Virus record (IMG/VR): IMGVR_UViG_3300042889_002114
Coordinates: 1-58,296 of that record
Length of the DNA: 58,296 nt
Reading direction: 5' to 3' (one strand)
From: a virus
Lineage: Duplodnaviria; Caudoviricetes
In this document: positions 44,399-57,598 of the stretch, in pieces
How the letters are laid out: each line of letters opens with the position of its first letter
Numbering within the stretch: the first letter of the stretch is position 1
Position numbers and translations under genes: made by a program
Notes under the pieces: model-generated
Seen by the model: only the letters and a program-made list of their open reading frames with translations
Told to the model about the DNA's origin: nothing
The model's database searches: none

Positions 44399-44465
44399 GG
44401 TGTCTCCTAGGGTTCAGGATATTTATCCAGAATAGGTAGAGTGGTAGATTTAGATAAATAGGAAC

Positions 44466-45053
44466 ATGAAACGAGTGTTCCTAAAAGACTTTGACTGGGT
44501 TGGGATTCAATCAGCATACGATTCAGGAATATCATGGCAAGGAATCATCGAGAAATTCAAGACGACTCCCACTAGCTTGAACAAAGCTGCGAAGCTTGGA
44601 TTGTTCAAAACTAGATCACAGAAGGAAGGTTCTGTGAGAGCGGCCGCCAGCCGTCCCAAACAAGTTCACACCGATGAATTCTGTCAGGCACAATCCCGTC
44701 GAGCCAAAGAACGTGGGTTGGGTGGTCAACGGAACAGTCACAAGATAGAATACAAGGGTGTGGTTTTAGATTCATCTTACGAGCTAGAGATGGCACAGAA
44801 TCTAGATGCTGCGGGTGTAAAATGGTCTCGCCCTGGCCGCTTCAAATGGATTGATGATTCGGGTGTGGATCACCATTATACGCCGGATTTCTACCTTCCC
44901 CATTATAATGTGTATCTCGATCCCAAACACAAGGGTTTGATTCCTCTCCACGCTAGGAAAATTGAATTGGTCCAGGAGCAGAATGACATAAGAGTTCTGG
45001 TTCTTACAAAAGAACAGTTGACGTGGGCTGCCGTACTCAGTTACGTTGGATAA
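44466..45053 (+). CDS. free-standing PD-(D/E)XK (TnsA_N-like) putative homing endonuclease
   Basis: SSYE...W.RP...YTPDFYLP...YLDPK; N-terminal HTH-like module. Confidence 0.8.
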   Translation: MKRVFLKDFDWVGIQSAYDSGISWQGIIEKFKTTPTSLNKAAKLGLFKTRSQKEGSVRAAASRPKQVHTDEFCQAQSRRAKERGLGGQRNSHKIEYKGVVLDSSYELEMAQNLDAAGVKWSRPGRFKWIDDSGVDHHYTPDFYLPHYNVYLDPKHKGLIPLHARKIELVQEQNDIRVLVLTKEQLTWAAVLSYVG

Positions 45054-45066
45054 ATAGGAACACACC

Positions 45067-45141
45067 GGGGACTTAGTGATAACGGTAGCACGCCAGATTT
45101 GCATTCTGGATGTAGGGGTTCGATTCCCCTAGTCTCCACCA
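45067..45141 (+). tRNA. tRNA-Ala(TGC)
   Basis: G3:U70; CCAGA-TTTGCAT-TCTGG; CCA. Confidence 0.92.
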
Positions 45142-45179
45142 ATACTGGATGTCATCGGTTCGAATCCGTTATTCTCCAC
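45142..45179 (+). pseudogene. 3' half remnant of a tRNA (Ala-like)
   Basis: CTGG-ATGTC-ATCGGTTCGAATCCG-TTATTCTCCAC with no 5' half attached. Confidence 0.7.
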
Positions 45180-45237
45180 TTAGGTTCCACGCCAAGAGAT
45201 GCGTCTCTTGGCCCACTCCTGCTTTCGGGCGGAGATA

Positions 45238-45267
45238 GATAGCCCGGCGTGGCCACGCCGGGCTATC
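45238..45267. terminator. perfect 30-bp palindrome
   Basis: GATAGCCCGGCGTGGCCACGCCGGGCTATC. Confidence 0.6.
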
Positions 45268-45501
45268 GCCATATAATGAGAGCCCTAGTGGTTTTCAAAG
45301 AATTCAGAAACATATTGCAACGCCACACACGGTAGTGCATTATGGATCAGTAGTCGGACGGAGACGCCCGGCGGACTTGGACGCAGAAAAGTTTCTGTAG
45401 AAAAGTTGAATTAAACGGTTGACGTATCATCCGTTTGGTATAAATAGAAATAACAGTCCAAGCCATTCCGGCGCGGACAACCTAAGGATTCGTAATCTAC
45501 T

Positions 45502-45681
45502 ATGTTCGACTCGTCCACCCTCTTTAGCAAAAAGCTCGCCGGTGCAAACCGTCGCGGCTGGTCGGCTGAGCGCGGCGGATGCGAACATAATGTGATTATG
45601 CCGTCCGCCTTGTATCAAAATCAGCCTACACAGCTGGTCAGCGATACAGGCACCCGGGGTTCTCCTGGAGGTTCTTGCTAA
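45502..45681 (+). CDS. candidate 59-aa leader peptide
   Basis: TATAAATA at 45439, AAGGA RBS; followed by a GC-rich hairpin. Confidence 0.45.
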   Translation: MFDSSTLFSKKLAGANRRGWSAERGGCEHNVIMPSALYQNQPTQLVSDTGTRGSPGGSC

Positions 45682-45717
45682 GAGGTAACTTTAAGCAAAA
45701 CACTTCTAGTAGTAAAC

Positions 45718-45749
45718 GCCCCGGGCACCGAAAGGTCCCGGGGCTTCTT
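45718..45749 (+). terminator. terminator-like hairpin (possible attenuator)
   Basis: GCCCCGGG-c-ACC-GAAA-GGT-CCCGGGGC-TTCTT. Confidence 0.6.
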
Positions 45750-45808
45750 GCATCTGGACCCGACGGTAACGGGGCAGAAAATAAAATGCGGAAAACTTAA
45801 AAAGTTAG

Positions 45809-45837
45809 TTGACAGTGTTTTAGAAGTATGCTAAAAT
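45809..45837 (+). promoter_or_regulatory. near-consensus sigma70 promoter for the tRNA array
   Basis: TTGACA-17nt-TAAAAT. Confidence 0.75.
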
Positions 45838-46098
45838 AGAATTCCGAAGGACTTAGGTCCCAAGGAGCAGTTGCTGGACTTAAACCAGCAGTGGTAAACG
45901 CGGAACGAGACTGCGGGATAGCCACTCAAAATAAACCCGAATGGGCGGTGCCGAGGATGAAACCCAGGTGATGGGGAGTAAAAATAGGTGGATGTATTGA
46001 ATCCACCGTGGGCAGTGAGAGGGAAACCTCTCGCAAGCGGATCCGTCTAAAGTGCTAGACAACATATTCCGCTTATCAATAAAAAAGGCCAAAGTTTT

Positions 46099-46176
46099 CA
46101 GCGTGTAGGGGAGTCTGGAGTCCCTGCCACCTCGGGAAGGTGGAGATCGCAGGTTCAAATCCTGCTACGCTGACCA
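46099..46176 (+). tRNA. tRNA-Pro(GGG)
   Basis: CCACC-TCGGGAA-GGTGG (C33); CCA. Confidence 0.88.
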
Positions 46177-46222
46177 AGATTTATATCCAGGCTGAGCGGC
46201 ACTCATAAGTCCTGGACGATAT

Positions 46223-46297
46223 GCTTCTGTAGCACAATGGCTAGTGCAACGAGCTGATAACTCGTAGATTCAGGTTCGATTCCTGGCAGAAGTACCA
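46223..46297 (+). tRNA. tRNA-Ile(GAT)
   Basis: ACGAG-CTGATAA-CTCGT; CCA. Confidence 0.93.
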
Positions 46298-46306
46298 ACA
46301 CAATAT

Positions 46307-46391
46307 GCGGTTGTGATGAAACTGGTAGACTTGCTGCACTCAGAATGCAGTGCCTTCGGGCGTGGTGGTTCGAATCCACTCAGCCGCACCA
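46307..46391 (+). tRNA. tRNA-Leu(CAG)
   Basis: CTGCA-CTCAGAA-TGCAG; variable arm; CCA. Confidence 0.93.
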
Positions 46392-46395
46392 ACAC

Positions 46396-46469
46396 GTGAT
46401 CATAGTTCAATTTCAGAGAACGCCGGCCCTGGGCTGGAAGTGCGGGGGAAGATCCCGCTGATTGCACCA
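46396..46469 (+). ncRNA. tRNA-like RNA with a truncated anticodon loop
   Basis: Acceptor GTGATCA/TGATTGC, ACCA end, 3-5 nt anticodon loop, atypical T loop. Confidence 0.6.
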
Positions 46470-46479
46470 ACTCTTTCAT

Positions 46480-46556
46480 TCCCATTGGTCCCTGTCGGTA
46501 GGGGAGCGACACTGTTAATGTCGATGTTGTAGGTTCGAGTCCTACATTGGGAGCCA
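46480..46556 (+). tRNA. tRNA-Asn(GTT)
   Basis: CGACA-CTGTTAA-TGTCG; GCCA. Confidence 0.9.
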
Positions 46557-46571
46557 ACATTCACCTTTTAT

Positions 46572-46647
46572 TCCTGTTTAGTCATCTTGGTGAGGGCGTC
46601 CGGCTGTTAACCGGAATAGGCTGGTTCGAACCCAGCAACAGGAGCCA
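46572..46647 (+). tRNA. tRNA-Asn(GTT)
   Basis: TCCGG-CTGTTAA-CCGGA; GCCA. Confidence 0.92.
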
Positions 46648-46654
46648 ACATTTA

Positions 46655-46690
46655 TGCGCGGTCGACAGGAGGTGGTTCCTGCCAGGTCTC
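46655..46690 (+). pseudogene. 5' half remnant of a tRNA (Met-like) ending in the anticodon loop
   Basis: TGCGCGG...GGTGGT...CAGGT-CTC followed by CGCTAAATA. Confidence 0.65.
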
Positions 46691-46704
46691 CGCTAAATAC
46701 TGGT

Positions 46705-47259
46705 ATGCGATATACCATTTACAAAATCACGAATTTGCTCAACGGTAAGTTCTATATCGGGAAGCACCAAACCTCTAATCCACTTGATGGATATTTTGGT
46801 TCGGGGCGGGCACTGAAGAGTGCCATCAAGCTTCACGGTAAAGAGAACTTCACCAAAGAGATACTCTTCGAGTTTGACTCAGAAGAGGAAATGAATGCCA
46901 AGGAGCGCGATCTCATTACCCTAGAGTTGGTTAATGATCCAGCATCCTATAACATGGCAGTTGGTGGTGAAGGTGGTCCTCACTTCAAAGGGCGACAACA
47001 TTCATCGGAAACCAAAGAACGAATTAGCCAGAGCTTAACAGGAAAGCAAGCCGCCTCGGTGTCCGAAGAGACCCGAGCAAAGCTTTCGGAGAAGAGCAAG
47101 GGTAACAAAAGTAAAACTGGTCAACAGACCTCGGAAGAGGTTAAGGCTAAGATAGCCAAGTCAATGACCGGTAAGAAACACAGTGAAGAAACCAAACAGA
47201 AGCTGCGAGAAGCTCGTTTGAGAACACTGGACAAGTCGCGGGTAGGACAAGACAGTTAG
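46705..47259 (+). CDS. GIY-YIG homing endonuclease (Seg-like, NUMOD3 repeats)
   Basis: TIYKITN..NGKFYIG...YFGSG...YN...GG; HS.ETK repeats; probable start at 46705. Confidence 0.9.
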   Translation: MRYTIYKITNLLNGKFYIGKHQTSNPLDGYFGSGRALKSAIKLHGKENFTKEILFEFDSEEEMNAKERDLITLELVNDPASYNMAVGGEGGPHFKGRQHSSETKERISQSLTGKQAASVSEETRAKLSEKSKGNKSKTGQQTSEEVKAKIAKSMTGKKHSEETKQKLREARLRTLDKSRVGQDS

Positions 47260-47314
47260 TCGCCAGCCTCATAAGCTGGATATCTGGTAGTTGCGAGCAC
47301 TACACCCGCTCCCA
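47237..47314 (+). tRNA. tRNA-Met(CAT), overlapping the endonuclease stop
   Basis: CCAGC-CTCATAA-GCTGG; 1:72 mismatch; atypical T loop; CCA. Confidence 0.82.
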
Positions 47315-47344
47315 TTCCAAGCTGGAGATGACAACCAGCTTTAT

Positions 47345-47419
47345 ACCACTGTACGCATCTGGTGAGGCGACTCCCCTGTCACGGGAATGAGGCGGGTTCG
47401 ATTCCCGTCAGTGGTGCCA
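47345..47419 (+). tRNA. tRNA-Asp(GTC)
   Basis: TCCC-CTGTCAC-GGGA; GCCA. Confidence 0.88.
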
Positions 47420-47427
47420 ACTTCTCT

Positions 47428-47504
47428 GCCCGTATCGTTCTTCTGGAGAGGTCACCTGCTCGACACGCAGGGTTAGGTGAGTTCGATTCTCACTGCGGGC
47501 ACCA
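47428..47504 (+). tRNA. tRNA-Val(GAC)
   Basis: CCTGC-TCGACAC-GCAGG (C33); ACCA. Confidence 0.85.
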
Positions 47505-47517
47505 ACAAGTCATTCAT

Positions 47518-47591
47518 GGCTCGCGCGATGGAGTCGCGGCTGATCCTTACAAGATCGGCGTCACAGGGTTCGATTCCCTGACGGGCTACCA
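47518..47591 (+). tRNA. tRNA-Val(TAC)
   Basis: TGATC-CTTACAA-GATCG; ACCA. Confidence 0.85.
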
Positions 47592-47597
47592 AATACT

Positions 47598-47672
47598 GGA
47601 CTGGGGTCCCCATGGTGGGGAAGCACACTCTTAATGTGCCCGTCGAGGGTTCGATCCCCTCCTAGTCCTCCA
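47598..47672 (+). tRNA. tRNA-Lys(CTT)
   Basis: GCACA-CTCTTAA-TGTGC; CCA. Confidence 0.87.
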
Positions 47673-47679
47673 ACATCAC

Positions 47680-47756
47680 GGACCTGTAGCACAATTGGTA
47701 GTTGCGGGGGCCTCTTAAGCCCTAGGTTGTCGGTTCGACCCCGACCAGGTTCACCA
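47680..47756 (+). tRNA. tRNA-Lys(CTT)
   Basis: GGGGC-CTCTTAA-GCCCT; ACCA. Confidence 0.9.
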
Positions 47757-47782
47757 AAGACCTAGCTCTGCTAGGCACTAAC

Positions 47783-47865
47783 GGGAAGGTAAAGCCGATG
47801 GTTTCGGCAGGCAGTCTGTAAAACTGCTCTTTCGGGGAGTGGATCGTAACCGCACCTTCCCACCA
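47783..47865 (+). tRNA. tRNA-Tyr(GTA)
   Basis: GCAGT-CTGTAAA-ACTGC; variable arm; ATCGTAA T loop. Confidence 0.85.
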
Positions 47866-47869
47866 ATAT

Positions 47870-47952
47870 GCACCAGTAACCGAGAGTCATATGGGTATGG
47901 CGGGAGGCTTTTAATCTCCTGGTAGGGGGATCGTAACCTCACTGGTGTGCCA
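47870..47952 (+). tRNA. tRNA-Lys(TTT), atypical D and T arms
   Basis: GGAGG-CTTTTAA-TCTCC; GCCA. Confidence 0.75.
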
Positions 47953-47964
47953 ATAAAATCAAAT

Positions 47965-48035
47965 GGCTAGGGTACTGGGTACGCGAGACTCTCATAAGGT
48001 CTTGTTGCCGGGATCGTAACCCGGACTAGCCTCCA
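47965..48035 (+). tRNA. tRNA with CAT anticodon (Met or Ile2)
   Basis: AGACT-CTCATAA-GGTCT; short D arm; CCA. Confidence 0.75.
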
Positions 48036-48039
48036 ACAT

Positions 48040-48116
48040 GCCCGCGTGACGTAACTGGTAAACGTGTCACGCTTAGACCGTGAATTCTGGAGGTTCGAAT
48101 CCTCTCGCGGGCACCA
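48040..48116 (+). tRNA. tRNA-Leu(TAG), short variable arm
   Basis: TCACG-CTTAGAC-CGTGA; ACCA. Confidence 0.88.
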
Positions 48117-48123
48117 AAGCTGA

Positions 48124-48156
48124 TGGAGATTAGTGTAGCTGGTAACATACCGCACT
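48124..48156 (+). pseudogene. 5' half remnant of tRNA-Gln ending at U33
   Basis: TGGAGATTAGTGTAGCTGGTAACATACCGCACT; closely resembles the 5' half of the tRNA at 48773. Confidence 0.85.
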
Positions 48157-48165
48157 AAATACAGT

Positions 48166-48768
48166 ATGATCATACAGCTCAAAAACAAATCATTGGTCCT
48201 TGAAGACCTGCAGAAATACTATGATGAAGGTCATAGTGTTGCGGCAACTGCCAAAGAGTTTGGTATTTCAAGTAGAACATTGATGAGGTTAAAAGCTAGT
48301 CACGGGTTTGTAACCAGGGACAAGTCAGCTGCATTGGTAGTATCCAATGCAAAGTATCCTAGAACCTTCAGCGAAGCTCAACGTGGTGTGCTTAGAACTC
48401 ACATGGAACGTCGGCTTGCTAATGGAACATATCCAACTCTTGGTAGGTCAAATCGGAAGATCGGGAAGCCATCATATCCGGAGACCTTCTTCAAGGAAGT
48501 GATCGAAAACGAGTTTACAGACAAACGCTACGAGGCGGAACATCCATTTGGATCCTTCTCCTTAGATTTTGCCTGGTTGCACTTGAAGAAGTGCATTGAG
48601 ATTGACGGTGAACAACATTTTGCTTCGCAAGAAGCGATTGATCGTGACTGTCGAAAAGATGCTTTCCTCGCCACAAACGGCTGGAAAGTATTTAGAATAC
48701 GGTGGAAGGATTTCTACAAAGATCCAAAGCCGCTCATCCTTCTTGTGAAGCAATTCATAGAAGAATGA
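48166..48768 (+). CDS. DUF559/Vsr-like putative homing endonuclease
   Basis: SYPE...FSLDFA...IEIDGEQH...D..KD.FL...GWKVFRI; N-terminal HTH-like module. Confidence 0.85.
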   Translation: MIIQLKNKSLVLEDLQKYYDEGHSVAATAKEFGISSRTLMRLKASHGFVTRDKSAALVVSNAKYPRTFSEAQRGVLRTHMERRLANGTYPTLGRSNRKIGKPSYPETFFKEVIENEFTDKRYEAEHPFGSFSLDFAWLHLKKCIEIDGEQHFASQEAIDRDCRKDAFLATNGWKVFRIRWKDFYKDPKPLILLVKQFIEE

Positions 48769-48772
48769 TTAT

Positions 48773-48847
48773 TGGAGATTGGTGTAAACGGTAACATCGA
48801 CGCCTCTGAAGCGTTTGTCCTAGGTTCGAACCCTAGATCTCCAGCCA
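48773..48847 (+). tRNA. tRNA-Gln(CTG)
   Basis: GACGC-CTCTGAA-GCGTT; U1:A72; GCCA. Confidence 0.93.
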
Positions 48848-48860
48848 ACTAGTCATTCAT

Positions 48861-48934
48861 TGGGGAATGGTGTAAAGGTAGCATAACTGACTTTGAATCA
48901 GTTGGATCACGTTCGATACGTGGTTCCCCAGCCA
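48861..48934 (+). tRNA. tRNA-Gln(TTG)
   Basis: ACTGA-CTTTGAA-TCAGT; GCCA. Confidence 0.92.
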
Positions 48935-49013
48935 ATAGGCCTTAGAGGATTTAGGGGATTAGGCACCCCACACCGGGATCACGAAAGTGACCGCATCTAC
49001 GGTTCCTCACTAT

Positions 49014-49085
49014 GCTGTTGTGGGGTGGCTCTCACGCTTGGTTGTGTCCCAGGTGGTTTCGGTTCGACTCCGAACAACAGTACCA
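49014..49085 (+). tRNA. tRNA-His(GTG), no G-1, G1:U72, A73
   Basis: CTTGG-TTGTGTC-CCAGG; short D arm; ACCA. Confidence 0.75.
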
Positions 49086-49092
49086 ATATCAT

Positions 49093-49125
49093 GCGTCTAT
49101 AGCTCAATGGTAGAGCCACTGCCTT
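49093..49125 (+). pseudogene. 5' half remnant of tRNA-Gly
   Basis: GCGTCTATAGCTCAATGGTAGAGCCACTGCCTT. Confidence 0.85.
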
Positions 49126-49142
49126 GGTCAACTAAATAGAGT

Positions 49143-49712
49143 ATGATCAAGAAGATATTTAATTGGCCCGAGATCCAAGCTTTTTACGATACTGGTAACA
49201 GTAGCGGAAAAACTGCCAAGCAATTTGGAATGTCAGGTAAAACTTTGTTCCTCGCGGCAAAACGTGGTGATTTTGTTACTCGATCCAGAAGTGAGGCGGC
49301 GACGGTTGGTTCAACAACCCGTCCACCTCATTCTCAGGTCACCAAAGACAAGTTGAGTAAGATTGCTTCCGACAGAGAATTTGGTGGCAAGAACTACCGT
49401 AAAACTTTCCCCTACAAGGGCGTTGTGTTGGAGAGCTCATACGAGCTTGCACTTGCACAAGAACTTGATGGTGAGGGTATTGCTTGGGTGCGTCCCAAGC
49501 GTTTCTACTGGACTGATGACACTGGTAGGCGTAGACACTACACACCAGACTTCTTCCTTCCAGACTACGGGATTTATCTAGATCCCAAAAACGACTACCT
49601 GATCAAGATAGATAGTGATAAGATCAACCGAGTGATGTTACAAAATGACATACGGGTGTTGGTGTTGTCTAAGAGTCAACTGTCCTGGTCATACATTGCA
49701 TCTGTAGTATAG
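49143..49712 (+). CDS. free-standing PD-(D/E)XK (TnsA_N-like) putative homing endonuclease
   Basis: ESSYE...WVRP...YTPDFFLP...YLDPKN; paralogue of the ORF at 44466. Confidence 0.82.
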   Translation: MIKKIFNWPEIQAFYDTGNSSGKTAKQFGMSGKTLFLAAKRGDFVTRSRSEAATVGSTTRPPHSQVTKDKLSKIASDREFGGKNYRKTFPYKGVVLESSYELALAQELDGEGIAWVRPKRFYWTDDTGRRRHYTPDFFLPDYGIYLDPKNDYLIKIDSDKINRVMLQNDIRVLVLSKSQLSWSYIASVV

Positions 49713-49772
49713 TGGCTATTATGTTTGGCTTCCAACCAGAAGATGTGGGTTCGATTCCCACCAGATGCTCCA
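49698..49772 (+). tRNA. tRNA-Gly(TCC), overlapping the endonuclease stop
   Basis: TTTGG-CTTCCAA-CCAGA; TCCA. Confidence 0.92.
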
Positions 49773-49812
49773 AGGAATGGCTAGCAGGGTTCGATCCTCT
49801 CTAGACGCTCCA
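49773..49812 (+). pseudogene. 3' half remnant of tRNA-Gly
   Basis: T loop GGTTCGATCC; TAGACGC-TCCA complementary to GCGTCTA at 49093. Confidence 0.85.
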
Positions 49813-49819
49813 ACTTTAT

Positions 49820-49895
49820 CCTGGCAAAGTCTTTGCGGTGGAGGCGCTGGTTTGTGGAGCCGGATGGCTAGGTTCGAATCCTAGTGCCAGGACCA
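49820..49895 (+). tRNA. tRNA-His(GTG), A73
   Basis: CTGGT-TTGTGGA-GCCGG; ACCA. Confidence 0.85.
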
Positions 49896-49902
49896 AGTTT
49901 AT

Positions 49903-49976
49903 GCGAATATAGCTCAAGGGTAGAGCAGAGCGTTGCCAACGCTCCGATAGGGGTTCGAATCCCCTTATTCGCTCCA
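49903..49976 (+). tRNA. tRNA-Gly(GCC)
   Basis: GAGCG-TTGCCAA-CGCTC; TCCA. Confidence 0.93.
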
Positions 49977-49983
49977 ACACAAT

Positions 49984-50059
49984 GCGGCATTAGTATATTG
50001 GTTGATTGCATCACCTTGCCATGGTGAGAAGATGGGTTCGATTCCCATATGCCGCTCCA
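49984..50059 (+). tRNA. tRNA-Gly(GCC)
   Basis: TCACC-TTGCCAT-GGTGA; TCCA. Confidence 0.9.
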
Positions 50060-50221
50060 AAGACGTTGTACGAAGCAGGGCTGCAAACCCTGAGCGAGAG
50101 GCCTTTAATGCGCGGGACAGTCTATCCCGAGAACTGTGAACAGCTTCACGGCGGGGGCCAAGAACCCCTAGTAGCATAGGAGAGGCGGAGTGGGGTGTGG
50201 ATACCCATTGCAAAGGAATAT

Positions 50222-50297
50222 GTGTAGTTGGTGAAGCTGGAGCTCACATTGGCTTGAAACCCCAAAGAACTAGGTTCGATCCCTAGACTACACACCA
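50222..50297 (+). tRNA. tRNA-Phe(GAA)
   Basis: TTGGC-TTGAAAC-CCCAA (one mismatch); ACCA. Confidence 0.82.
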
Positions 50298-50506
50298 AGT
50301 TCTCCTAGGAGGACGGAGCCTACTTACGCCCTAGGCTCGTAAAATATGGAGACGTTCTGCACTGTGGAGCGTTGGGACCTCGCAGCGCCGGGCGGCCAGT
50401 TCGTAAGGAACAAGTAGCTCATTACCTGGAAGGGGCAGGTTACCGATTATAATGGTTGCGCGTTTCTAGTTGGCAACATAGAGTGCTTTTTTAACAGGAG
50501 CACCAC

Positions 50507-50827
50507 ATGAACCAGCAACAAGGTTTTCTCGCGCACGCCGACGGCACGATTGCCGGACTGAAGTCCCAGCAAGTTGCGATCGAATATCGCAAGACGATCT
50601 GCCCCAAGGACCAAGTCGAGATCCTCGACCTGGACGTGGCGCGCCTGCAACGCGAGATTGACCGGCTGGTCATCATCCGCACTGACGTTGAGTCCAAGCT
50701 GAGCAAGGAAGAGATCGCCCAGTATGAAGCGTCGCGGGTCAAGCCCAAGACGGAACTCGAGAAGCGCGCCGAGATTGAAGAAATGAATCGGCGCATGAAC
50801 GAGAACAAGGACCGGCCGGGGATCTAA
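50507..50827 (+). CDS. hypothetical coiled-coil protein inside the tRNA array
   Basis: AGGAG RBS; 106 aa. Confidence 0.7.
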   Translation: MNQQQGFLAHADGTIAGLKSQQVAIEYRKTICPKDQVEILDLDVARLQREIDRLVIIRTDVESKLSKEEIAQYEASRVKPKTELEKRAEIEEMNRRMNENKDRPGI

Positions 50828-50839
50828 TCCCCTGCCTAT

Positions 50840-50962
50840 GTGAAGGTAGTGTGAGGACGTGCTAGGATGCAGGGGACCGGAAAACTCTGCAGGGGATCAC
50901 GGACGGGATAACACAACGGGGAGGACCCGGAGATGTTGGTTCAAATCCAACCCTTTACACCA
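50840..50962 (+). ncRNA. tRNA-scaffolded GGA-rich RNA
   Basis: Acceptor GTGAAGG/CCTTTAC (G3:U70), canonical T arm and ACCA, enclosing ~85 nt with ten GGA triplets. Confidence 0.7.
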
Positions 50963-50969
50963 ACTACAT

Positions 50970-51071
50970 CGAGAGGTAGTTTAAGGACGCGACGGGGTCG
51001 ACACCAAGCGGACTGGTAAAATGGGCGTGTGAGAACGTCAGATGTAGGCTCGAAACCTTCCCTCTCGGCCA
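50970..51071 (+). ncRNA. tRNA-like RNA with an expanded D loop
   Basis: Acceptor CGAGAGG/CCTCTCG-GCCA; ~25-nt D-loop insert; 6-nt anticodon loop. Confidence 0.6.
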
Positions 51072-51072
51072 T

Positions 51073-51148
51073 GTACCTGTAGCTCAGTTGGTAGAGCAAC
51101 GCACTGAAAATGCGTGTGTCGGTGGTTCGAGTCCACCTAGGTGCACCA
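51073..51148 (+). tRNA. tRNA-Phe(GAA)
   Basis: ACGCA-CTGAAAA-TGCGT; ACCA. Confidence 0.94.
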
Positions 51149-51271
51149 ATACCAAAATCCACCCTTTGAGGTGGCACCCAGGGTGGGTGGTTAACGTGAA
51201 GCGGGGTTCGATGCCCTAAACGATCGGGTTCGACTCCCCTTCGTGCTTGGCTGCAATATCGTTAATGAAAC

Positions 51272-51347
51272 GGGGTATGCTCTGGGTTAAGCGGATTAGT
51301 TTTGCAAACTGATTGTCTGAAGGGTTCGATTCCCTTATATTCCACCA
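51272..51347 (+). tRNA. tRNA-Ala(TGC)
   Basis: G3:U70; TTAGT-TTTGCAA-ACTGA; atypical D arm. Confidence 0.8.
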
Positions 51348-51410
51348 ACGAGCCGAAGACAATGGGTTATCTTTTGCTGATAAACACCCACCGTCATTTA
51401 CTTGCTCGTT
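51347..51410 (+). ncRNA. minimal Y RNA (Ro60-binding stem only)
   Basis: AACGAGC-CGA...GGGTTAT...ACTT-GCTCGTT. Confidence 0.7.
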
Positions 51411-51415
51411 ACCAT

Positions 51416-51490
51416 GGCGCATTAGTTCACTGGCTAGAATACCGCTCTTTCACAGCGGGGAAACGAGATCGATACTCGTATGCGTCACCA
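51416..51490 (+). tRNA. tRNA-Glu(TTC)
   Basis: CCGCT-CTTTCAC-AGCGG; ACCA. Confidence 0.9.
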
Positions 51491-51494
51491 ACAT

Positions 51495-51568
51495 GCTTCT
51501 GCCGGCGGATTCCGGCATTTGGACTTCTAATCCGAAATGCGAGGGTTCGACTCCTTCCAGAAGCGCCA
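51495..51568 (+). tRNA. tRNA-Arg(TCT)
   Basis: TTGGA-CTTCTAA-TCCGA; GCCA. Confidence 0.87.
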
Positions 51569-51606
51569 AGCATTTCATATGCCTCTGATGATGGATTTCA
51601 TACCCC

Positions 51607-51679
51607 GACCTTGCCAACGGATTTTGGCCCCGACGCTTCGAACGTCAGGTATCGAGTTCGACTCTCGACAGGGTCTCCA
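51607..51679 (+). tRNA. tRNA-Arg(TCG)
   Basis: GACG-CTTCGAA-CGTC; TCCA. Confidence 0.82.
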
Positions 51680-51687
51680 ACCATATT

Positions 51688-51759
51688 GTCTCCGCTAGTG
51701 GATCTAGTCTGTTCCCTGCGAAGGAAGAGAAGCCTGTTCGACTCAGGCCGGAGACGCCA
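51688..51759 (+). tRNA. tRNA-Arg(GCG)
   Basis: TTCC-CTGCGAA-GGAA; GCCA. Confidence 0.8.
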
Positions 51760-51766
51760 ATTAAAT

Positions 51767-51840
51767 ACCCGCGCCGAGGGATTGCGGCACAGGCCCTGCG
51801 AAGGCTTGATGTTCAGGTTCGACTCCTGACGTGGGTGCCA
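51767..51840 (+). tRNA. tRNA-Arg(GCG), overlapping the antisense endonuclease stop
   Basis: AGGCC-CTGCGAA-GGCTT; GCCA. Confidence 0.85.
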
Positions 51841-52448
51841 ACTGCATCAAAGATTTCTTGAGGAGTACCGTAGATTAGGTCAACTGATCCTACGAGTGCA
51901 TCAAGTTTCTCTTGTTGTTTTTCAACTACGATCCTGTTCTTAGGATCAAGGTAGAGATTGAATTCTGGTAGATAGAAATCTGCAAAGTATTTGTGTGGTT
52001 TGCCTTTTTGGTCATACCAAACGATTGCATCAGTGGGTCGAAGCCAACTTATGGAATGCTCATTGAGCCACTTAGCAACAATGACTTCCCATCCTGAATC
52101 AAACATCTCTCCCTCGTATTCTTGTTTCTTGACACCTGATGCGTTCTTACGCTTTGACGAAATAAAGCATTGGTCAGAACATAGAAGACCATACCATCCA
52201 CTGTCAGTTCGTTGACTCCAGAATTGATTAGAGCAAAACGAACAGTTGGATCGTTTTATTTTGGTGTGTTGATACTTGGTGGGTTGTTTCCGAATAAAGG
52301 ATCTACCCTTCAAAGATTCAGAAGTTTTTGATTTGCTACTAATGGTTCTAGGTGCTCTGTTTGTATTATTGAATACAGCGGCGCATGAACAAGAACAGAA
52401 TTTGTTCTTGTTGGGAATTGGTTTGGCACAAGTGATACAGTATTTCAT
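51813..52448 (-). CDS. PD-(D/E)XK putative homing endonuclease with N-terminal zinc-finger motifs
   Basis: CxxC...FCS..C twice; DSGWE...WLRP...YFADFYLP...YLDPKN; TAAATA on the minus strand before ATG. Confidence 0.82.
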   Translation of the reverse strand: MKYCITCAKPIPNKNKFCSCSCAAVFNNTNRAPRTISSKSKTSESLKGRSFIRKQPTKYQHTKIKRSNCSFCSNQFWSQRTDSGWYGLLCSDQCFISSKRKNASGVKKQEYEGEMFDSGWEVIVAKWLNEHSISWLRPTDAIVWYDQKGKPHKYFADFYLPEFNLYLDPKNRIVVEKQQEKLDALVGSVDLIYGTPQEIFDAVGTHVRSRT

Positions 52449-52458
52449 GTTGTATTTA

Positions 52459-52498
52459 GCGAAACCGAAAATCTAGGTTCGATCCCTAGTGGAACCGC
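52459..52498 (+). pseudogene. 3' half remnant of tRNA-Arg(GCG) starting at the anticodon
   Basis: GCG-AA-ACCGA-AAAT-CTAGGTTCGATCCCTAG-TGGAAC. Confidence 0.8.
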
Positions 52499-52748
52499 TT
52501 AATCGGAGACACCCACAGGCCCTAGGGCTCGTGACGTGAGCTTGGCGCTAGAGGGCTTACCGCGTGTAGCGGATGAGTCCGGAGTGGGAGTGTGGAAACC
52601 CACCGATTGAAGATACTCCTTGTAAATGACCCTTCCTAGTCCGGTTGCAAACGGACGACGTGGGAGGCAGTTTAGATGAGCGGACTTGCGGCGTTTGGAG
52701 CCGAGGTAGTCTAGGAGCCGGGTGAGGAAACCGGCCTTGGAGCATAAT

Positions 52749-52823
52749 GGGCTGTTAGTGATAACGGTAGCACGGGACAATGGCATTGTCTTAGCAGGGG
52801 TTCGATTCCCCTACAGTCCACCA
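52749..52823 (+). tRNA. tRNA-Ala(GGC)
   Basis: G3:U70; GGACA-ATGGCAT-TGTCT; ACCA. Confidence 0.92.
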
Positions 52824-52836
52824 ACTGATATTCTTT

Positions 52837-52910
52837 GGCCCATTAGTTTAATGGTAGAATACCGCCCTCTCACGGCGTCAGCAGGGGTTCGATTCCCCTA
52901 TGGGTCACCA
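52837..52910 (+). tRNA. tRNA-Glu(CTC)
   Basis: CGCC-CTCTCAC-GGCG; ACCA. Confidence 0.9.
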
Positions 52911-53020
52911 ACTACTACCTCACGGAGGTGGTGCTTTAGAGACGCTCCCGCTTTGTTTGGAGCCAGGGAAACCTGTGGCGGTCTCGGAGGGGAATGTGGA
53001 CCTCCCCAGTAGTTGAATAT

Positions 53021-53096
53021 GGCGCATTAGTTTATAGGGTGAAAATACTGGGCTTTCAATCCGGAGTGGTGGGTTCGATCCCCACATGCGTCGCCA
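53021..53096 (+). tRNA. tRNA-Glu(TTC)
   Basis: CTGGG-CTTTCAA-TCCGG; GCCA. Confidence 0.9.
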
Positions 53097-53189
53097 AACT
53101 TGTTGACACTCTGGAGACAGGGTGTTACATTGATTCTACCAACTAGTCCCTCCCTGTAGCTGTTTCTAGCAACAGAAGGAGATAAGACG

Positions 53190-53450
53190 ATGAAGGTATA
53201 TGTGGTTCTGCACAATAACTGGCAACACTACGAAGGTGGTGGAGCGGAGATTGTTTCGATTCATGCTTCCACGAACTGAGCGTTGGCGGAAGTCAAAGCT
53301 CAGTTCGTGGAACTGAATAAAAATCGCTACTCGTATCAACCCGAGTATGTGATGGTGGATCGTGAAAACGAGTCCGATTGTTGGTACTACCAGGAAACTG
53401 GTGGGGCTGACTATTGGTACTCCATCGAGGAACACAAGATTGAGGACTAG
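53190..53450 (+). pseudogene. small phage protein gene with an in-frame TGA at codon 30
   Basis: TTGACA promoter, AAGGAG RBS; MKVYVV...IVSIHASTN*ALAEVK...YSIEEHKIED. Confidence 0.65.
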
Positions 53451-53653
53451 GAAACTGGTCCTCCGATCTAATACTCTGGTATGCAGTAACCAAAGCATAC
53501 TCCCGCCACACGGGAAACGTGGCCCTGCATGACTCCGGCAATCGGTAGTGGAGGAATTTCATCCCCTTGATGCAAAGGGGGTCGGCACGGGTATGATGGC
53601 ACTCTACGTTAGTGAGCCCATTAGTCGGGTGGGGATGGTACCCCACCCGCTTT

Positions 53654-53731
53654 TCCTAGCTAGTCATCTTGGTGATGGCGCTCCGCTGTTAACGGAGATT
53701 GAGCTCAGTTCGAATCTGAGGCTAGGAGCCA
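53654..53731 (+). tRNA. tRNA-Asn(GTT)
   Basis: CTCCG-CTGTTAA-CGGAG; GCCA. Confidence 0.92.
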
Positions 53732-53773
53732 ATAATATAGACGCCATCGAAGCAGTAATGCTTTACTCTGGAA

Positions 53774-54196
53774 ATGAACTTTCGAGGCGTCAAGGATTCA
53801 ACCTTTGTTTGTGGGTTTTGTGAGAAGTCTTTCTCTTGGAGAGGCTACTCCACCTCCCACAAGTTTTGTTCTACAGACTGTGCTCACTCTAACAGGGTGA
53901 AGATGACTAGAGAACGAGACGACGCGCTCTTCGATACTGGCCAGTTAACAAGTCGGCCATCAATCTACCAAATACTTGTTACCCGTCGTGGTAACAAGTG
54001 TGAGAGTTGTAATATTCAAGACTGGATGGGCAAAGCAATCCGATTTTGGGTCGACCACATTGATGGGTGTGCAACCAATAATGATCCATCAAACTTGAGA
54101 TTGGTCTGTCCCAACTGTGATAGTCAATCTGCCACATTCGGTGGTAAAAATAGAGGTAGTGGCCGTAAGTCCCTAGGGCTTGCGCCATACAGTTAA
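53774..54196 (+). CDS. HNH homing endonuclease
   Basis: CxxC..., CESC...VDHIDG...NN...NLRLVCPNC. Confidence 0.85.
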   Translation: MNFRGVKDSTFVCGFCEKSFSWRGYSTSHKFCSTDCAHSNRVKMTRERDDALFDTGQLTSRPSIYQILVTRRGNKCESCNIQDWMGKAIRFWVDHIDGCATNNDPSNLRLVCPNCDSQSATFGGKNRGSGRKSLGLAPYS

Positions 54197-54201
54197 ACAA
54201 T

Positions 54202-54277
54202 CCCCTCGGACCCAGCTGGTGACGGGAGCCGCTTGTCAGGCGGATGCGGGCGAGTTCAATTCTCGTCGAGGGGGCCA
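54202..54277 (+). tRNA. tRNA-Asp(GTC)
   Basis: CCGC-TTGTCAG-GCGG; GCCA. Confidence 0.87.
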
Positions 54278-54403
54278 ACTTAGAGCCGATTGATTCGGGT
54301 TATCTTTCTGTGAAAAAGCGATGGAGGGTTCGATTCCCTTGCCGGGGCTCACGCCTTGGTCCTTGGATGGCTGGCAACGTCCGGTTCTCCACTTGCTCTA
54401 AGT
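54278..54403 (+). ncRNA. Y RNA (YrlA-like) with a permuted tRNA-like domain
   Basis: ACTTAGAGC-CGA..GGGTTAT..T arm GAGGGTTCGATTCCCTT..CCACTT-GCTCTAAGT. Confidence 0.78.
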
Positions 54404-54407
54404 CTTT

Positions 54408-54488: not shown

Positions 54489-54490
54489 CT

Positions 54491-54635: not shown

Positions 54636-54638
54636 ATT

Positions 54639-54728: not shown

Positions 54729-54734
54729 ACTCAT

Positions 54735-54825: not shown

Positions 54826-54831
54826 ATAAAT

Positions 54832-54936: not shown

Positions 54937-54942
54937 AACCTT

Positions 54943-56887: not shown

Positions 56888-56921
56888 GGTCCTATAGCTT
56901 AATGGCAGAGCCCTCCGCTTG
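56888..56921 (+). pseudogene. 5' half remnant of a tRNA (Ile-like) ending at G34
   Basis: GGTCCTATAGCTTAATGGCAGAGCCCTCCGCTTG followed by CTAAATA. Confidence 0.82.
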
Positions 56922-56932
56922 CTAAATACGGC

Positions 56933-57574
56933 ATGAACCGTAAACGTAAATATGACTACCAACAGATCCAAGAACTGTATGACAGTGGTTTTTCAATTAA
57001 GATTACCTGTAAAATTTCAGGTATGTCACCGGCTAGATTCAATGCTCTTGTAAAGCAAGGATTTCTTGTTACTAGGACACAATCAGAAGCCGCTATACTT
57101 ACTGGAGGATCAGGCTTTTGTTCTCCTGATTATGTGGGTTCTGAGAAACATAGACAGTCCTCGGCAAAGGGTGGTGGATATAAAGAGCGAGCGGGACGTT
57201 CCAAGGGTGCATTCCGTATAGACGGCTATGGTGTCAAAACCTGGCTACAATCAAGCTATGAGACGCAACTAGCAGATATCATGACGCAAAATGATATTCT
57301 ATGGTGTCGCCCCAAAGCACTCTCCTATAATGATGGAGATCGGGATAGGAAATACTATCCTGATTTCTTCCTTCCAGACTATGATTTGTATCTGGATACG
57401 AAGAACGACTACTTGGCTAAAGTGGACGCGGGTAAGATTGAACTGGTTCGAAACCAACATGGTATTCAACTGTTCATCATCACGCAGAAGCAAATCACAC
57501 TGGAGTATCTCCAGTCATTATGGTCTCATCGTACAATGGCTCAGTACGCTCGGCTGATAACCGGGAAATCGTAG
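56933..57574 (+). CDS. free-standing PD-(D/E)XK (TnsA_N-like) putative homing endonuclease
   Basis: QSSYE...WCRP...YYPDFFLP...YLDTKN; N-terminal HTH-like module. Confidence 0.82.
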   Translation: MNRKRKYDYQQIQELYDSGFSIKITCKISGMSPARFNALVKQGFLVTRTQSEAAILTGGSGFCSPDYVGSEKHRQSSAKGGGYKERAGRSKGAFRIDGYGVKTWLQSSYETQLADIMTQNDILWCRPKALSYNDGDRDRKYYPDFFLPDYDLYLDTKNDYLAKVDAGKIELVRNQHGIQLFIITQKQITLEYLQSLWSHRTMAQYARLITGKS

Positions 57575-57598
57575 GTTCAATTCCTCGTGGGACTACCA
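57522..57598 (+). tRNA. tRNA-Ile(GAT), largely inside the 3' end of the endonuclease ORF
   Basis: CTCGG-CTGATAA-CCGGG; ACCA. Confidence 0.88.

Follow-up and report, generated by a model that had tools for sequence, protein, structure and literature searches.

A nuclease gene and a complete tRNA-Gly inside a split tRNA-Gly(UCC) gene of a huge phage: a probable intron-less homing-endonuclease cassette

Introduction

What has divided a tRNA-Gly(UCC) gene among the clustered tRNA genes of a very large (huge) lake-water phage, and how is the gene's function covered now that its two halves flank a nuclease gene and a second, complete tRNA-Gly? We analyzed a stretch of 58,296 nucleotides (IMG/VR record IMGVR_UViG_3300042889_002114; hereafter the window), of which an earlier note had proposed that the inserted unit is the nuclease plus a complete tRNA, with rejoining of the halves by splicing as a less likely alternative.

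We conclude that the locus is probably an intron-less mobile homing-endonuclease cassette that brings a replacement tRNA with it and that interrupts a resident tRNA-Gly(UCC) gene in its anticodon loop, with position 34 on one side and position 35 on the other. Cleavage and mobility are the presumed parts of this reading.

Results

The two remnants belong to one tRNA-Gly(UCC) gene

The 5′ remnant (Table 1) comprises tRNA positions 1-34: the acceptor strand GCGTCTA (49093-49099), a canonical D arm (TA GCTC AATGGTA GAGC), the 5′ strand of the anticodon stem and the loop bases C32, T33 and T34. The 3′ remnant carries the T arm CAGGG TTCGATC CTCTC, then the acceptor strand TAGACGC (49802-49808) and T plus CCA (49809-49812). 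The two acceptor strands form seven of seven Watson-Crick pairs, a match expected with a chance of about 6e-5 for one fixed pair; the earlier note had both the coordinates and this perfect stem right. Over the 2.5 kb scanned upstream of the orphan T arm, the strand at 49093 is the sole partner with seven Watson-Crick pairs and the sole partner followed by a D arm.

Joined in silico, 49093-49125 and 49770-49812 are called tRNA-Gly(tcc) by ARAGORN, the outcome that the earlier note had anticipated for such a join. In control joins, none of 500 random 5′ pieces attached to the true 3′ piece was called, and neither were all but 2 of 500 random 3′ pieces attached to the true 5′ piece. ARAGORN is not strict about where the two pieces meet (of 1080 junctions tried, 51 gave some tRNA, with varying anticodons), and the assignment to Gly therefore rests on the intact relative described below and on the set G1-C72, C2-G71, G3-C70 and U73.

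The 3′ remnant is decayed. The stretch that should contain the 3′ strand of its anticodon stem and its variable region is eroded and exceeds the expected length by 2 nt. In a drawing of the joined sequence one pair of the T stem is G-T and another is mismatched, and the rebuilt anticodon stem, already described as imperfect in the earlier note, has three of five pairs.

Table 1. Positions, in the numbering of the window, of the features of the split tRNA-Gly(UCC) locus and of the paralogous cassettes
Feature	Position	Strand	Description
5′ remnant, resident tRNA-Gly(UCC)	49093..49125	+	32/33 bases identical to the intact L061 allele
Cassette leader, 17 nt	49126..49142	+	TAAATAG box at 49133-49139, 3 nt before the ATG
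Nuclease ORF, 189 aa	49143..49712	+	HTH at about residues 1-45; PD-(D/E)xK domain, residues 87-189
Putative catalytic codons	E101 49443-49445; D136 49548-49550; D147 49581-49583; K149 49587-49589	+	invariant in 26/26 relatives
Cargo tRNA-Gly(UCC), complete	49698..49772	+	66.8 bits; acceptor stem 7/7 Watson-Crick
Shared TCCA, right-junction microhomology	49769..49772	+	cargo 3′ end (U73-CCA), same letters as old loop positions 34-37
3′ remnant, resident tRNA-Gly(UCC)	49770..49812	+	T arm, acceptor strand TAGACGC, T, CCA
Ala paralogous cassette	44427..45181	+	degenerate 5′ piece; nuclease 44466-45053; tRNA-Ala(TGC) 45067-45141; orphan T arm and acceptor 45154-45181
Distant paralogue	51765..52500	-	nuclease 51813-52448, minus strand
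Ile paralogous cassette	56888..57598	+	orphan 5′ half; nuclease 56933-57574; tRNA-Ile(GAT) 57522-57598

An uninterrupted allele defines the junctions

Intact tRNA-Gly(tcc) genes are present in two metagenome contigs, L061 (159-232) and L060 (31-104, minus strand), so that the joined allele that the earlier note had suggested looking for in relatives does exist. The first 24 nt and the TAGACGC-TCCA end of both genes are identical to those of the split gene, and the joined sequence matches L061 at 63 of 76 aligned columns. The genomic context of these alleles differs from that of the cassette. The native anticodon loop reads CTTCCAA, which places the break between positions 34 and 35. In the comparison with L061 all native nucleotides are accounted for on either side of a 644-nt insert. 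The TCCA at the right junction both closes the cargo tRNA at its 3′ end and forms part of the old anticodon loop, a double use that the earlier note had recognized.

The left junction is crossed by contigs of runs X2, X3 and X4 and the right junction by an X3 contig (49630-49808, 0 differences); with these independent contigs of three other runs, the split layout is not an artefact of assembly. No contig of runs X1-X4 contains a joint of 49125 to 49770. A joint of 49116 to 49726 in run X1 differs at 7 of 47 letters, has one side of 26 letters and includes three foreign letters, and was taken as another organism's tRNA. An exact search of viral contigs with 24 nt of the 5′ half gave 0 matches, as did each exact search for a cassette-free sibling phage with the 3′ ends of the flanking tRNAs. 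Queried at the nucleotide level with 48100-52500, the phage collection gave tRNA-sized matches only (2% coverage). The 24 runs listed for the stretch include no RNA runs.

The insert consists of a leader, a nuclease ORF and a complete tRNA

The 644-nt insert holds the 17-nt leader, the 189-aa nuclease ORF and the complete tRNA-Gly(UCC), the inserted unit that the earlier note had described. The ORF is free-standing: it lies outside any intron and has its own start 17 nt past the tRNA stub. Among relatives a TAAATA(G/C) or TATAAATA box likewise precedes the start codon, and the box could conceivably play a late-promoter-like role. A sigma-70 promoter scan of 48700-50100 found three sites, compared with 2.0 in shuffled sequences, and a hairpin over the start codon (49123-49152) was not significant (z = -1.26).

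The ORF and the cargo tRNA overlap by 15 nt: the tRNA begins with what are also the final four sense codons and the stop of the ORF. The cargo tRNA has the third-best score among the tRNAs of the region and, judged by its sequence, looks fully functional. It is alike with the target tRNA at 14 of 27 positions across tRNA positions 8-33.

The nuclease ORF has the fold and motif of the PD-(D/E)xK superfamily

The reading frame of the nuclease is intact and all of the conserved putative catalytic residues are present, in the arrangement E...PD...DxK, an instance of the motif E...PD...(D/E)xK. Every one of the 26 aligned relatives has E101, D136, D147 and K149. The ORF matches endonuclease and resolvase families of PHROG (E from 4.5e-09 to 6e-03); it has no Pfam family.

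An AlphaFold model of the nuclease (pLDDT 92.5) was compared with known structures. With residues 87-189, VIA-align gave Bax1 (Z 8.1, rmsd 2.4, 83 aligned), VRR-NUC (Z 7.8), I-Bth0305I (PDB 3r3p; Z 7.7, rmsd 3.1, 80 aligned; Foldseek probability 0.98), TnsA (Z 7.6), Vsr (Z 7.4) and Hjc (Z 5.6), Z scores of 7-8 being in a range that the tool itself calls common. The eight best entries are nucleases or nuclease-like except that at rank 4, a chain of the Toxoplasma mitoribosome. The I-Ssp6803I structure 2ost gave Z 4.5, and residues 1-43 matched the DNA-binding domain of Tn3 resolvase (Z 4.9). Foldseek found no match for the model in the PDB at E<=0.001. Because the top matches are of the PD-(D/E)xK nuclease type and the motif is invariant, the ORF is, on the evidence of its predicted core fold and its motif, a member of the PD-(D/E)xK superfamily.

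Two other assignments were rejected. The Seg/Mob families (GIY-YIG or HNH) have no Pfam or PHROGs match to the nuclease ORF, and neighboring ORFs do match them. The T7 endonuclease I family (Pfam PF05367) does not match the ORF either, and the paralogues, at 15.5 and 13.1 bits, stay below its gathering threshold of 29.1; a PDB profile search gave E values of 0.25-0.33 between the nuclease and T7 endonuclease I, and a distant kinship of the two is possible. A protein search of the phage collection with the nuclease returned four records, all below 36% identity.

Related cassettes occur in the same window and in other viruses

Four nuclease paralogues lie in a 14-kb part of the window. The orphan 5′ half of the Ile cassette (56888 onward) has the loop bases CTT, followed by GC and then a TAAATAC box, and its tRNA-Ile(GAT) overlaps the nuclease ORF by 53 nt. 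The two acceptor pieces of the Ala cassette, which are candidate partners, pair at five of seven positions as read by eye. The 3′ end of the distant paralogue overlaps a plus-strand tRNA-Arg (51765-51840), and upstream of its start there is a plus-strand orphan 3′ half of a tRNA (52473-52500). The window also contains at least 12 orphan T arms, and the same tRNA array holds GIY-YIG, HNH and DUF559 nuclease genes.

Among 52 related viral loci, 50 have tRNAs within 2.5 kb. Of 43 distinct ORFs, 23 have a same-strand tRNA whose start lies between -45 and +60 nt relative to the end of the ORF, a number that rises to 24 with the Ile cassette of the window (-52) added. For 15 of the 43, an orphan 5′ half stands directly upstream of the ATG; the rule-based detector used is strict, with a sensitivity of 200/544 and 14 false hits in 88 kb, or about 0.02 expected per upstream window. 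The distance from the end of the D arm to the ATG in these stubs is near-constant at 21-26 nt (37-48 nt in one subgroup). On the nuclease tree the cargo isotypes cluster, with 11 changes compared with 18.1 in shuffles, and 0 of 200 shuffles were as low.

Three of the 15 cassettes examined retain both halves: the present one, L025 (5′ half, nuclease, tRNA-Thr(TGT), 3′ half) and L011 (the same order, with tRNA-Ile(TAT) as cargo). The acceptor strands of the L011 and L025 halves pair at all seven positions, and the halves rejoin into tRNAs called by ARAGORN. Like-for-like replacement is not general, since the L025 target is Lys-like and its cargo is Thr. In three further cassettes (L006, L007 and L010, the closest relatives) the orphan 5′ strand forms seven of seven pairs with the 3′ strand of the cargo, and the cargo's own 5′ strand forms six of seven. 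There the old 3′ acceptor strand is, as the pairing of the sequences indicates, now part of the working tRNA. In 8 of the 15 the search for a partner of the 5′ stub found none, and the Ile cassette can be read in more than one way, so that clean insertion is not the sole possible history across the family.

Alternative explanations

The split could instead have arisen by local rearrangement of a repetitive tRNA array, through unequal recombination or segmental amplification and deletion, with the nuclease as a bystander. Short repeats (T loops and CCA ends) are plentiful in the array, the orphan T arms in the window number 12 or more, and SegB-driven segmental amplification of T6 tRNA regions is documented (PMC13096335). 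Against this stand a break that is exact to the nucleotide, with no loss from the old gene, and its position in the anticodon loop, as in the family's other stubs with their near-constant spacing. Stubs also abut the nuclease leader far more often than the detector's false-hit rate would give, and the type of cargo follows the nuclease clade. We regard rearrangement as unlikely.

A second alternative, compatible with the insertion history, concerns what maintains the cassette: rather than being purely selfish, it may be kept for a benefit to the phage, for example by excluding competitors whose tRNA genes it would cut, or by renewing and amplifying tRNA genes against host defences that target tRNAs. 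The four paralogues and the additional GIY-YIG, HNH and DUF559 genes are in line with such a benefit, and SegB has been shown to help in escape from a tRNA-cleaving defence (PMC13096335). We give benefit to the phage a low probability.

It is very improbable that the upstream 5′ half is a traveling part of the cassette, a control or homology region unrelated to the 3′ remnant. The stubs of L006 and L007, and those of L009 and L010, are indeed nearly identical in pairs whose nucleases share only about half of their residues. At the present locus, however, the stub pairs at all seven positions with the 3′ remnant, and both pieces match one uninterrupted gene in L060/L061 (the stub at 32 of 33 bases, the acceptor strand and TCCA completely). 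The stub is identical to those of its closest relatives at 14 of 26 positions and differs at 12, and the GCGTCTA stub has so far been seen only with its own 3′ half.

Rejoining of the halves in RNA, by a self-splicing intron, bulge-helix-bulge splicing or trans-ligation, so that the interrupted gene would still function, is hardly credible: the acceptor strands do still pair fully, the D arm is perfect and the halves are collinear on one strand of a co-oriented array, but no group I, group II or other intron family was found in Rfam at E<=5 over 44000-58296; the non-coding sequence of the insert (17 nt on the left, 0 on the right) leaves no room for a ribozyme core; the complete tRNA inside the insert would, on being processed, break the transcript in two; the ends of the insert (40 nt following the 5′ half against 40 nt preceding the 3′ half) pair with -5.3 kcal/mol compared with a shuffle mean of -10.4, 490 of 500 shuffles being equal or better; and the anticodon stem, the overlong adjoining region and the T-stem mismatch all mark a damaged 3′ exon. 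The same observations led us to reject two specific models, a group I intron in the anticodon loop (intron match, ribozyme space and intact 3′ exon being absent) and split, trans-joined tRNA genes of the Nanoarchaeum type (no processing helix between the insert ends), and they bear out the earlier note's ranking of splicing as the less likely history.

Discussion

Under the preferred reading, an intron-less homing-endonuclease cassette inside tRNA-Gly(UCC), the nuclease would cut, close to the anticodon, those tRNA-Gly(UCC) genes of co-infecting relatives that are free of the cassette, and repair would then copy the cassette from the donor. The cargo tRNA would render the disruption harmless, in the role that self-splicing plays for intron- and intein-borne nucleases. 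The cargo tRNA is presumably not itself a target, because its stems and D arm differ from those of the target. The right-hand join lies at the TCCA common to the cargo 3′ end and the old loop, and the old 3′ half has therefore survived. Among the closest relatives, either the join itself or a deletion that followed between the two T arms may have fallen inside the tRNA, leaving a working tRNA that ends in the old 3′ acceptor strand.

The present split gene has a GCTC/GAGC D stem, in a D arm typical of tRNA-Gly(GCC), and its cargo has a D stem of the GTAT type. In L006, L007 and L010 the split gene is of the GTAT type, and the cargo has a D arm of the same kind as the GCTC/GAGC gene (GTTT/GAAC or GTTT/AAAC stem). 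Tentatively, and with less confidence than for the locus itself, the family may be one lineage of a general intron-less strategy for the entry of homing endonucleases into essential RNA genes, in which a cleavage-resistant replacement is welded to the 3′ end of the nuclease gene, two nuclease lineages being apparently caught in a cycle of replacing each other's tRNA-Gly(UCC).

The cassette can be set beside several known systems. Integrative elements that use tRNA genes as insertion sites bring along a copy of the tRNA end that they displace; the process is driven by an integrase and duplicates the 3′ end. The cassette resembles them in placing a partial copy of a tRNA gene beside a restored working gene. 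It differs in having no integrase, in the break at the anticodon loop, in importing a whole tRNA and in being, on our reading, nuclease-driven. Group I introns with homing endonucleases occur in the anticodon loops of bacterial tRNAs, as in the tRNA-fMet intron that encodes the PD-(D/E)xK enzyme I-Ssp6803I. The target in the anticodon loop, the nuclease superfamily and an invasion made harmless are common to these introns and the cassette, whereas the cassette is without a ribozyme: a second, complete tRNA covers the damage and the old gene decays. One of the best-scoring structures for the nuclease domain is I-Bth0305I, a phage-borne homing endonuclease with a catalytic domain of the PD-(D/E)xK type; the two were compared at the level of the fold, their sequences being 15% identical, and the motif conserved in the present nucleases is E...PD...DxK.

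SegB of T4 and T6 is a free-standing GIY-YIG homing endonuclease encoded in a tRNA gene cluster; it targets tRNA genes and is co-inherited with neighboring tRNA genes in mixed infection, a case of intron-less homing in which the flanks are co-converted (PMC2330249, PMC13096335). Both SegB and the present nuclease are products of intron-less genes within a phage tRNA cluster. The SegB gene lies between two intact genes encoding tRNA-Ile and tRNA-Arg, and its GIY-YIG product recognizes a T-loop motif. The present gene, unlike that of SegB, lies inside a tRNA gene at the anticodon with both halves left, encodes a PD-(D/E)xK fold, and overlaps at its 3′ end a complete replacement tRNA. The cassette is best read as a variant form of free-standing phage homing endonucleases such as SegB. 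Our literature search, with subscription journals outside its coverage, turned up SegB and general studies of tRNA arrays, and no published description of a tRNA gene that harbors a nuclease gene fused to a replacement tRNA.

To our knowledge, an essential gene is open to a homing endonuclease only when the latter is concealed in a self-splicing intron or intein; otherwise such nucleases lie between genes. Direct entry into an essential RNA gene, with a spare copy that travels with the nuclease, would be a third route, one that involves neither RNA nor protein splicing. The locus is an unusually clean record of such an event, with both halves, exact junctions, a known uninterrupted allele and an intact nuclease gene, which allows the presumed target site to be spelled out. 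The layout of stub, nuclease and tRNA accounts for many of the orphaned tRNA pieces and unusual chimeric tRNAs of large-phage arrays, and the cassettes may supply new site-specific nucleases with tRNA-gene targets. If the tentative reading of a general strategy is true, these cassettes would count among the chief drivers by which huge phages turn over and shuffle the tRNA genes of their arrays.

A nuclease and a tRNA inside a tRNA-Gly(UCC) gene

The Gly cassette is a resident tRNA-Gly(UCC) gene in two pieces, exactly inside which lies a 644-base insert (49126–49769) made up of a leader, a nuclease ORF and a complete tRNA (the cargo), the first 15 nt of which are the end of the ORF. Among T arms sought apart from the annotated tRNAs, that of the 3' remnant came up as an orphan. 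In the 2.5 kb upstream, its acceptor strand has a single 7/7 Watson-Crick partner, at 49093, and no other partner there precedes a D arm. Joined in silico, 49093–49125 and 49770–49812 were called as tRNA-Gly(tcc) by ARAGORN, compared with 0 of 500 control joins in which a random piece replaced the 5' piece and 2 of 500 in which one replaced the 3' piece; ARAGORN accepted 51 of 1080 junctions, with various anticodons, and so cannot by itself fix the isotype of the joined tRNA. The 3' remnant is decayed: three of five anticodon-stem pairs form, the region is 2 nt over-long, and the T stem contains one G-T pair and one mismatch. The earlier note had described both halves, their perfect acceptor stem and the imperfect anticodon stem, and had suggested the join; the split gene is confirmed on each point, and its reading of the insert as a nuclease plus a complete tRNA is supported.

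An exact search with the first 24 nt of the 5' remnant gave no match in viral contigs and matched four metagenome contigs. Contigs L060 and L061 carry the uninterrupted gene, the intact allele that the earlier note had proposed seeking in relatives. The in-silico join is identical to L061 at 63 of 76 aligned columns (32 of 33 in the 5' part), and a T-stem difference (A50/T64) is compensatory, so the divergence from L061 is in part older than the break. The native anticodon loop is CTTCCAA, the 5' remnant ends in CTT and the 3' remnant starts with CCAAG; the break in the old gene thus falls between positions 34 and 35, without loss of a base. As the note had recognized, TCCA (49769–49772) forms the 3' end of the cargo tRNA and at the same time supplies old-loop positions 34–37, a junction microhomology.

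Rejoining of the halves at the RNA level, which the note had ranked as the less likely alternative, is very unlikely: no Rfam intron family matched in 44000–58296 even at E ≤ 5, the insert is too small to accommodate a ribozyme as well, its two ends (40 nt directly following the 5' half, 40 nt directly preceding the 3' half) do not pair with each other (duplex −5.3 kcal/mol; 490 of 500 shuffles as good or better), processing of the tRNA inside the insert would sever the transcript, and the 3' remnant is decayed. An assembly artefact is ruled out by contigs from three other lake/freshwater sequencing runs (X2, X3 and X4), which cover the left junction with 0 differences (X2 records 11 and 12, X4 record 28) or 2 differences (X3 record 18) and, in an X3 contig (49630–49808, 0 differences), run continuously from the ORF through the cargo into the 3' remnant.

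A further contig (L058, 618,894 bases) carries at 1501–1615 a gene resembling tRNA-Gly(UCC), identical to the 5' remnant over its first 24 nt and uncalled by ARAGORN, in which an insert of ~45 nt interrupts the anticodon loop and the flanking 5-bp anticodon stem is intact. This insert may be a mini-intron, or a scar left when an element was excised.

Coordinates of the cassettes and associated features (window positions unless a contig is named)
Feature	Coordinates	Strand	Details
Gly 5' remnant, start	49093–49099	+	GCGTCTA, then canonical D arm and anticodon-stem 5' strand
Gly leader	from 49126	+	17 nt; TAAATAG ending 3 nt before ATG
Gly nuclease ORF	49143–49712	+	189 aa
Gly cargo tRNA-Gly(UCC)	49698–49772	+	complete; 66.8 bits; acceptor stem 7/7 Watson-Crick
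Gly 3' remnant, end	49785–49812	+	T arm, TAGACGC, T, CCA
Uninterrupted tRNA-Gly(tcc)	L061 159–232		same 24-nt start, TAGACGC-TCCA end
Uninterrupted tRNA-Gly(tcc)	L060 31–104	−	same 24-nt start, TAGACGC-TCCA end
Ile cassette	56888–57598		orphan 5' half GGTCCTA and D arm, loop CTT, GC, TAAATAC box
Ile nuclease	56933–57574		tRNA-Ile(GAT) overlaps ORF by 53 nt
Ala cassette	44427–45181		nuclease 44466–45053, tRNA-Ala(TGC)
Distant paralogue	51813–52448 (region 51765–52500)	−	zinc-ribbon N-terminus
TATAAATA copies	6173–6180, 19702–19709, 36756–36763, 45439–45446	+
Further orphan T arms plus acceptor strands, none within an ARAGORN tRNA	47564–47591, 50935–50962, 51044–51071, 51652–51679, 54324–54351, 54535–54562, 54701–54728, 56853–56880

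The inserted nuclease

No Pfam family matched the ORF. PHROGs matches were to endonuclease and 'Holliday junction resolvase' families (E 4.5e-09 to 6e-03), and similarity to T7 endonuclease I fell short of significance. An alignment of 26 relatives showed E101, D136, D147 and K149 to be invariant, forming an E...PD...DxK motif. The AlphaFold model is confident (pLDDT 92.5) and had no Foldseek match at E ≤ 0.001. With VIA-align, modelled residues 87–189 matched Bax1 (Z 8.1), VRR-NUC (7.8), the homing endonuclease I-Bth0305I (7.7), TnsA (7.6), Vsr (7.4), Hjc (5.6) and I-Ssp6803I (4.5), which places this predicted domain among the PD-(D/E)xK nucleases; residues 1–43 matched resolvase-type helix-turn-helix (HTH) domains. 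A search of 5.8 billion proteins gave 140 relatives at E ≤ 1e-5, all metagenomic, named 'hypothetical protein' or by guesses, none with a Pfam family on the nuclease domain.

The layout of the nuclease family

Among viral contigs, 52 loci were found to encode relatives of the nuclease; 50 of these loci have tRNA genes within 2.5 kb. Removing identical ORFs and including the three window cassettes left 43 cassettes. A same-strand tRNA starts −45 to +60 nt from the ORF end in 23 (overlap mostly 9–14 nt), or in 24 when the window Ile cassette is counted too; in eight, an antisense tRNA abuts the ORF end. In 15 of the 43, some close kin of each other, an orphan tRNA 5' half (the stub) directly precedes the start codon, as judged by a deliberately strict detector (200 of 544 real tRNAs recovered; 14 false positives over 88 kb, or ~0.02 per upstream window by chance). 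Past the stub, which ends in the anticodon loop, come a TAAATA(G/C) or TATAAATA box and then the start codon. The stub-nuclease-tRNA layout is a stable trait of the family.

The window contains four copies of TATAAATA, where 0.63 would be expected (none of 100 shuffles has as many), one of them 11 nt upstream of tRNA-Gly 6191. The sequence fits a T4-type late-promoter box, as do the boxes that precede the nuclease ORFs. On a maximum-likelihood tree of 26 nucleases, cargo isotype is clustered (11 changes versus 18.1 in shuffles; 0 of 200 as low), although some of this arises from kinship alone.

In the window Ala cassette, an orphan T arm and acceptor strand (45154–45181) lie 12 nt past the cargo, the identical spacing to the Gly cassette; a possible 5' partner at 44427 has 5/7 pairs and a degenerate D arm. 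The distant paralogue overlaps at its 3' end the opposite-strand tRNA-Arg (51765–51840), an antisense arrangement found at eight related loci, and an orphan tRNA 3' half without CCA (52473–52500) precedes its start. The Gly-clade nuclease ORF at L012:2414–3049 begins 15 nt past a complete tRNA-Gly(TCC), not a stub, and has no tRNA after its stop codon.

The old tRNA halves were compared in 15 stub-bearing cassettes. Both are kept in three: the Gly cassette (acceptor pairing 7/7), L011 (7 pairs, 6 Watson-Crick; cargo tRNA-Ile(TAT)) and L025 (7/7; cargo tRNA-Thr(TGT)). The L011 and L025 halves also rejoin into tRNAs (ARAGORN); the split gene of L025, with an intact anticodon stem, looks like tRNA-Lys(TTT). 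No separate 3' half was found in L006, L007 and L010, the nearest relatives of the Gly cassette, all with cargo tRNA-Gly(UCC); here the working tRNA's 3' acceptor strand forms 7/7 pairs with the stub and has one mismatch with the tRNA's own 5' strand. The window Ile cassette is ambiguous, stub and cargo 5' strand pairing equally with the cargo 3' strand (7 pairs, 5 Watson-Crick each). No stub partner was found in eight; L015 was scored from a misplaced stub start.

A proposed mechanism

We infer that, in genomes free of the cassette, the nuclease would cut intact tRNA genes close to the anticodon, and that repair would then copy the cassette into the cut gene, the carried tRNA maintaining the phage's supply. 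A right-hand join at the CCA microhomology would keep the old 3' half, as in the Gly cassette; if the join, or a deletion at a later stage, fell between the two T arms, the result would be a chimeric tRNA bearing the acceptor strand of the old 3' half, as in L006, L007 and L010; and larger deletions would lose the old 3' half. The three outcomes fit one process.

The cargo may escape cleavage because its stems and D arm are unlike those of the target, the resident split gene: the two agree at 14 of 27 positions in the Gly cassette (tRNA positions 8–33) and 17 of 26 in L007. Between these loci, the Gly-cassette target resembles the L007 cargo (20/26) and the Gly-cassette cargo the L007 target (20/27), compared with 14/26 between targets and 17/27 between cargos. 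This reciprocity is only suggestive of immunity by divergence.

The surrounding tRNA array

The record (58,296 bases) has an estimated completeness of 12%, so the window is a fragment of a very large phage. Of the 39 tRNA genes called by ARAGORN, 36 are plus-strand genes at 45067–58261; Rfam confirmed 30 tRNAs at the gathering score in 44000–58296. Interspersed are genes for two GIY-YIG, one HNH and one DUF559/Vsr-like nuclease and four paralogues of the Gly-cassette ORF. The DUF559/MTES_1575 (Vsr-like) ORF (48166–48768), directly upstream of tRNA-Gln 48773, has an N-terminal HTH 39% identical to that of the Gly-cassette nuclease (residues 9–62), and by sequence looks like the same DNA-binding module joined to a different nuclease domain.

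Six of the eight further orphan T arms have an NCCA end. For three, a 5' strand that pairs 7/7 lies at a distance of 63–95 nt on the upstream side (at 50840, 50970 and 56790), a hint of overlooked tRNA-like genes that are long or unusual. The arm at 56853 has the acceptor strand of tRNA-Trp 56597–56671, and that at 54535 adjoins a weak match to the YrlA (Y RNA-like) family (54508–54634; 31.2 bits, gathering score 69). ARAGORN also called a tRNA with a four-base anticodon (ggaa) at 17062–17139, and a 107-aa ORF between tRNAs (57643–57966) matches elongation factor Ts over its N-terminal part (PF00889; E 6.3e-07, 29.6 bits, cut-off 27).

Relation to known systems

In work on SegB, a free-standing GIY-YIG homing endonuclease of phages T4/T6 (PMC2330249, PMC13096335), homing endonuclease genes are described as rarely observed in phage tRNA clusters, and SegB as recognizing a T-loop motif of tRNA genes and driving inheritance of the tRNA region. 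The Gly-cassette nuclease is of a different family, its putative target is the anticodon loop rather than that T-loop motif, and, unlike SegB, it sits inside a tRNA gene and has a replacement tRNA welded to it. The anticodon loop is also the target of group I introns of tRNA genes, which use different means. No published description of a nuclease within a tRNA gene with a welded replacement tRNA was found in open-access papers and bioRxiv. With its nuclease activity, target site and mobility all putative, the Gly cassette belongs with the free-standing homing endonucleases of phage tRNA clusters, among which its clean record of insertion and its replacement-gene strategy are notable.
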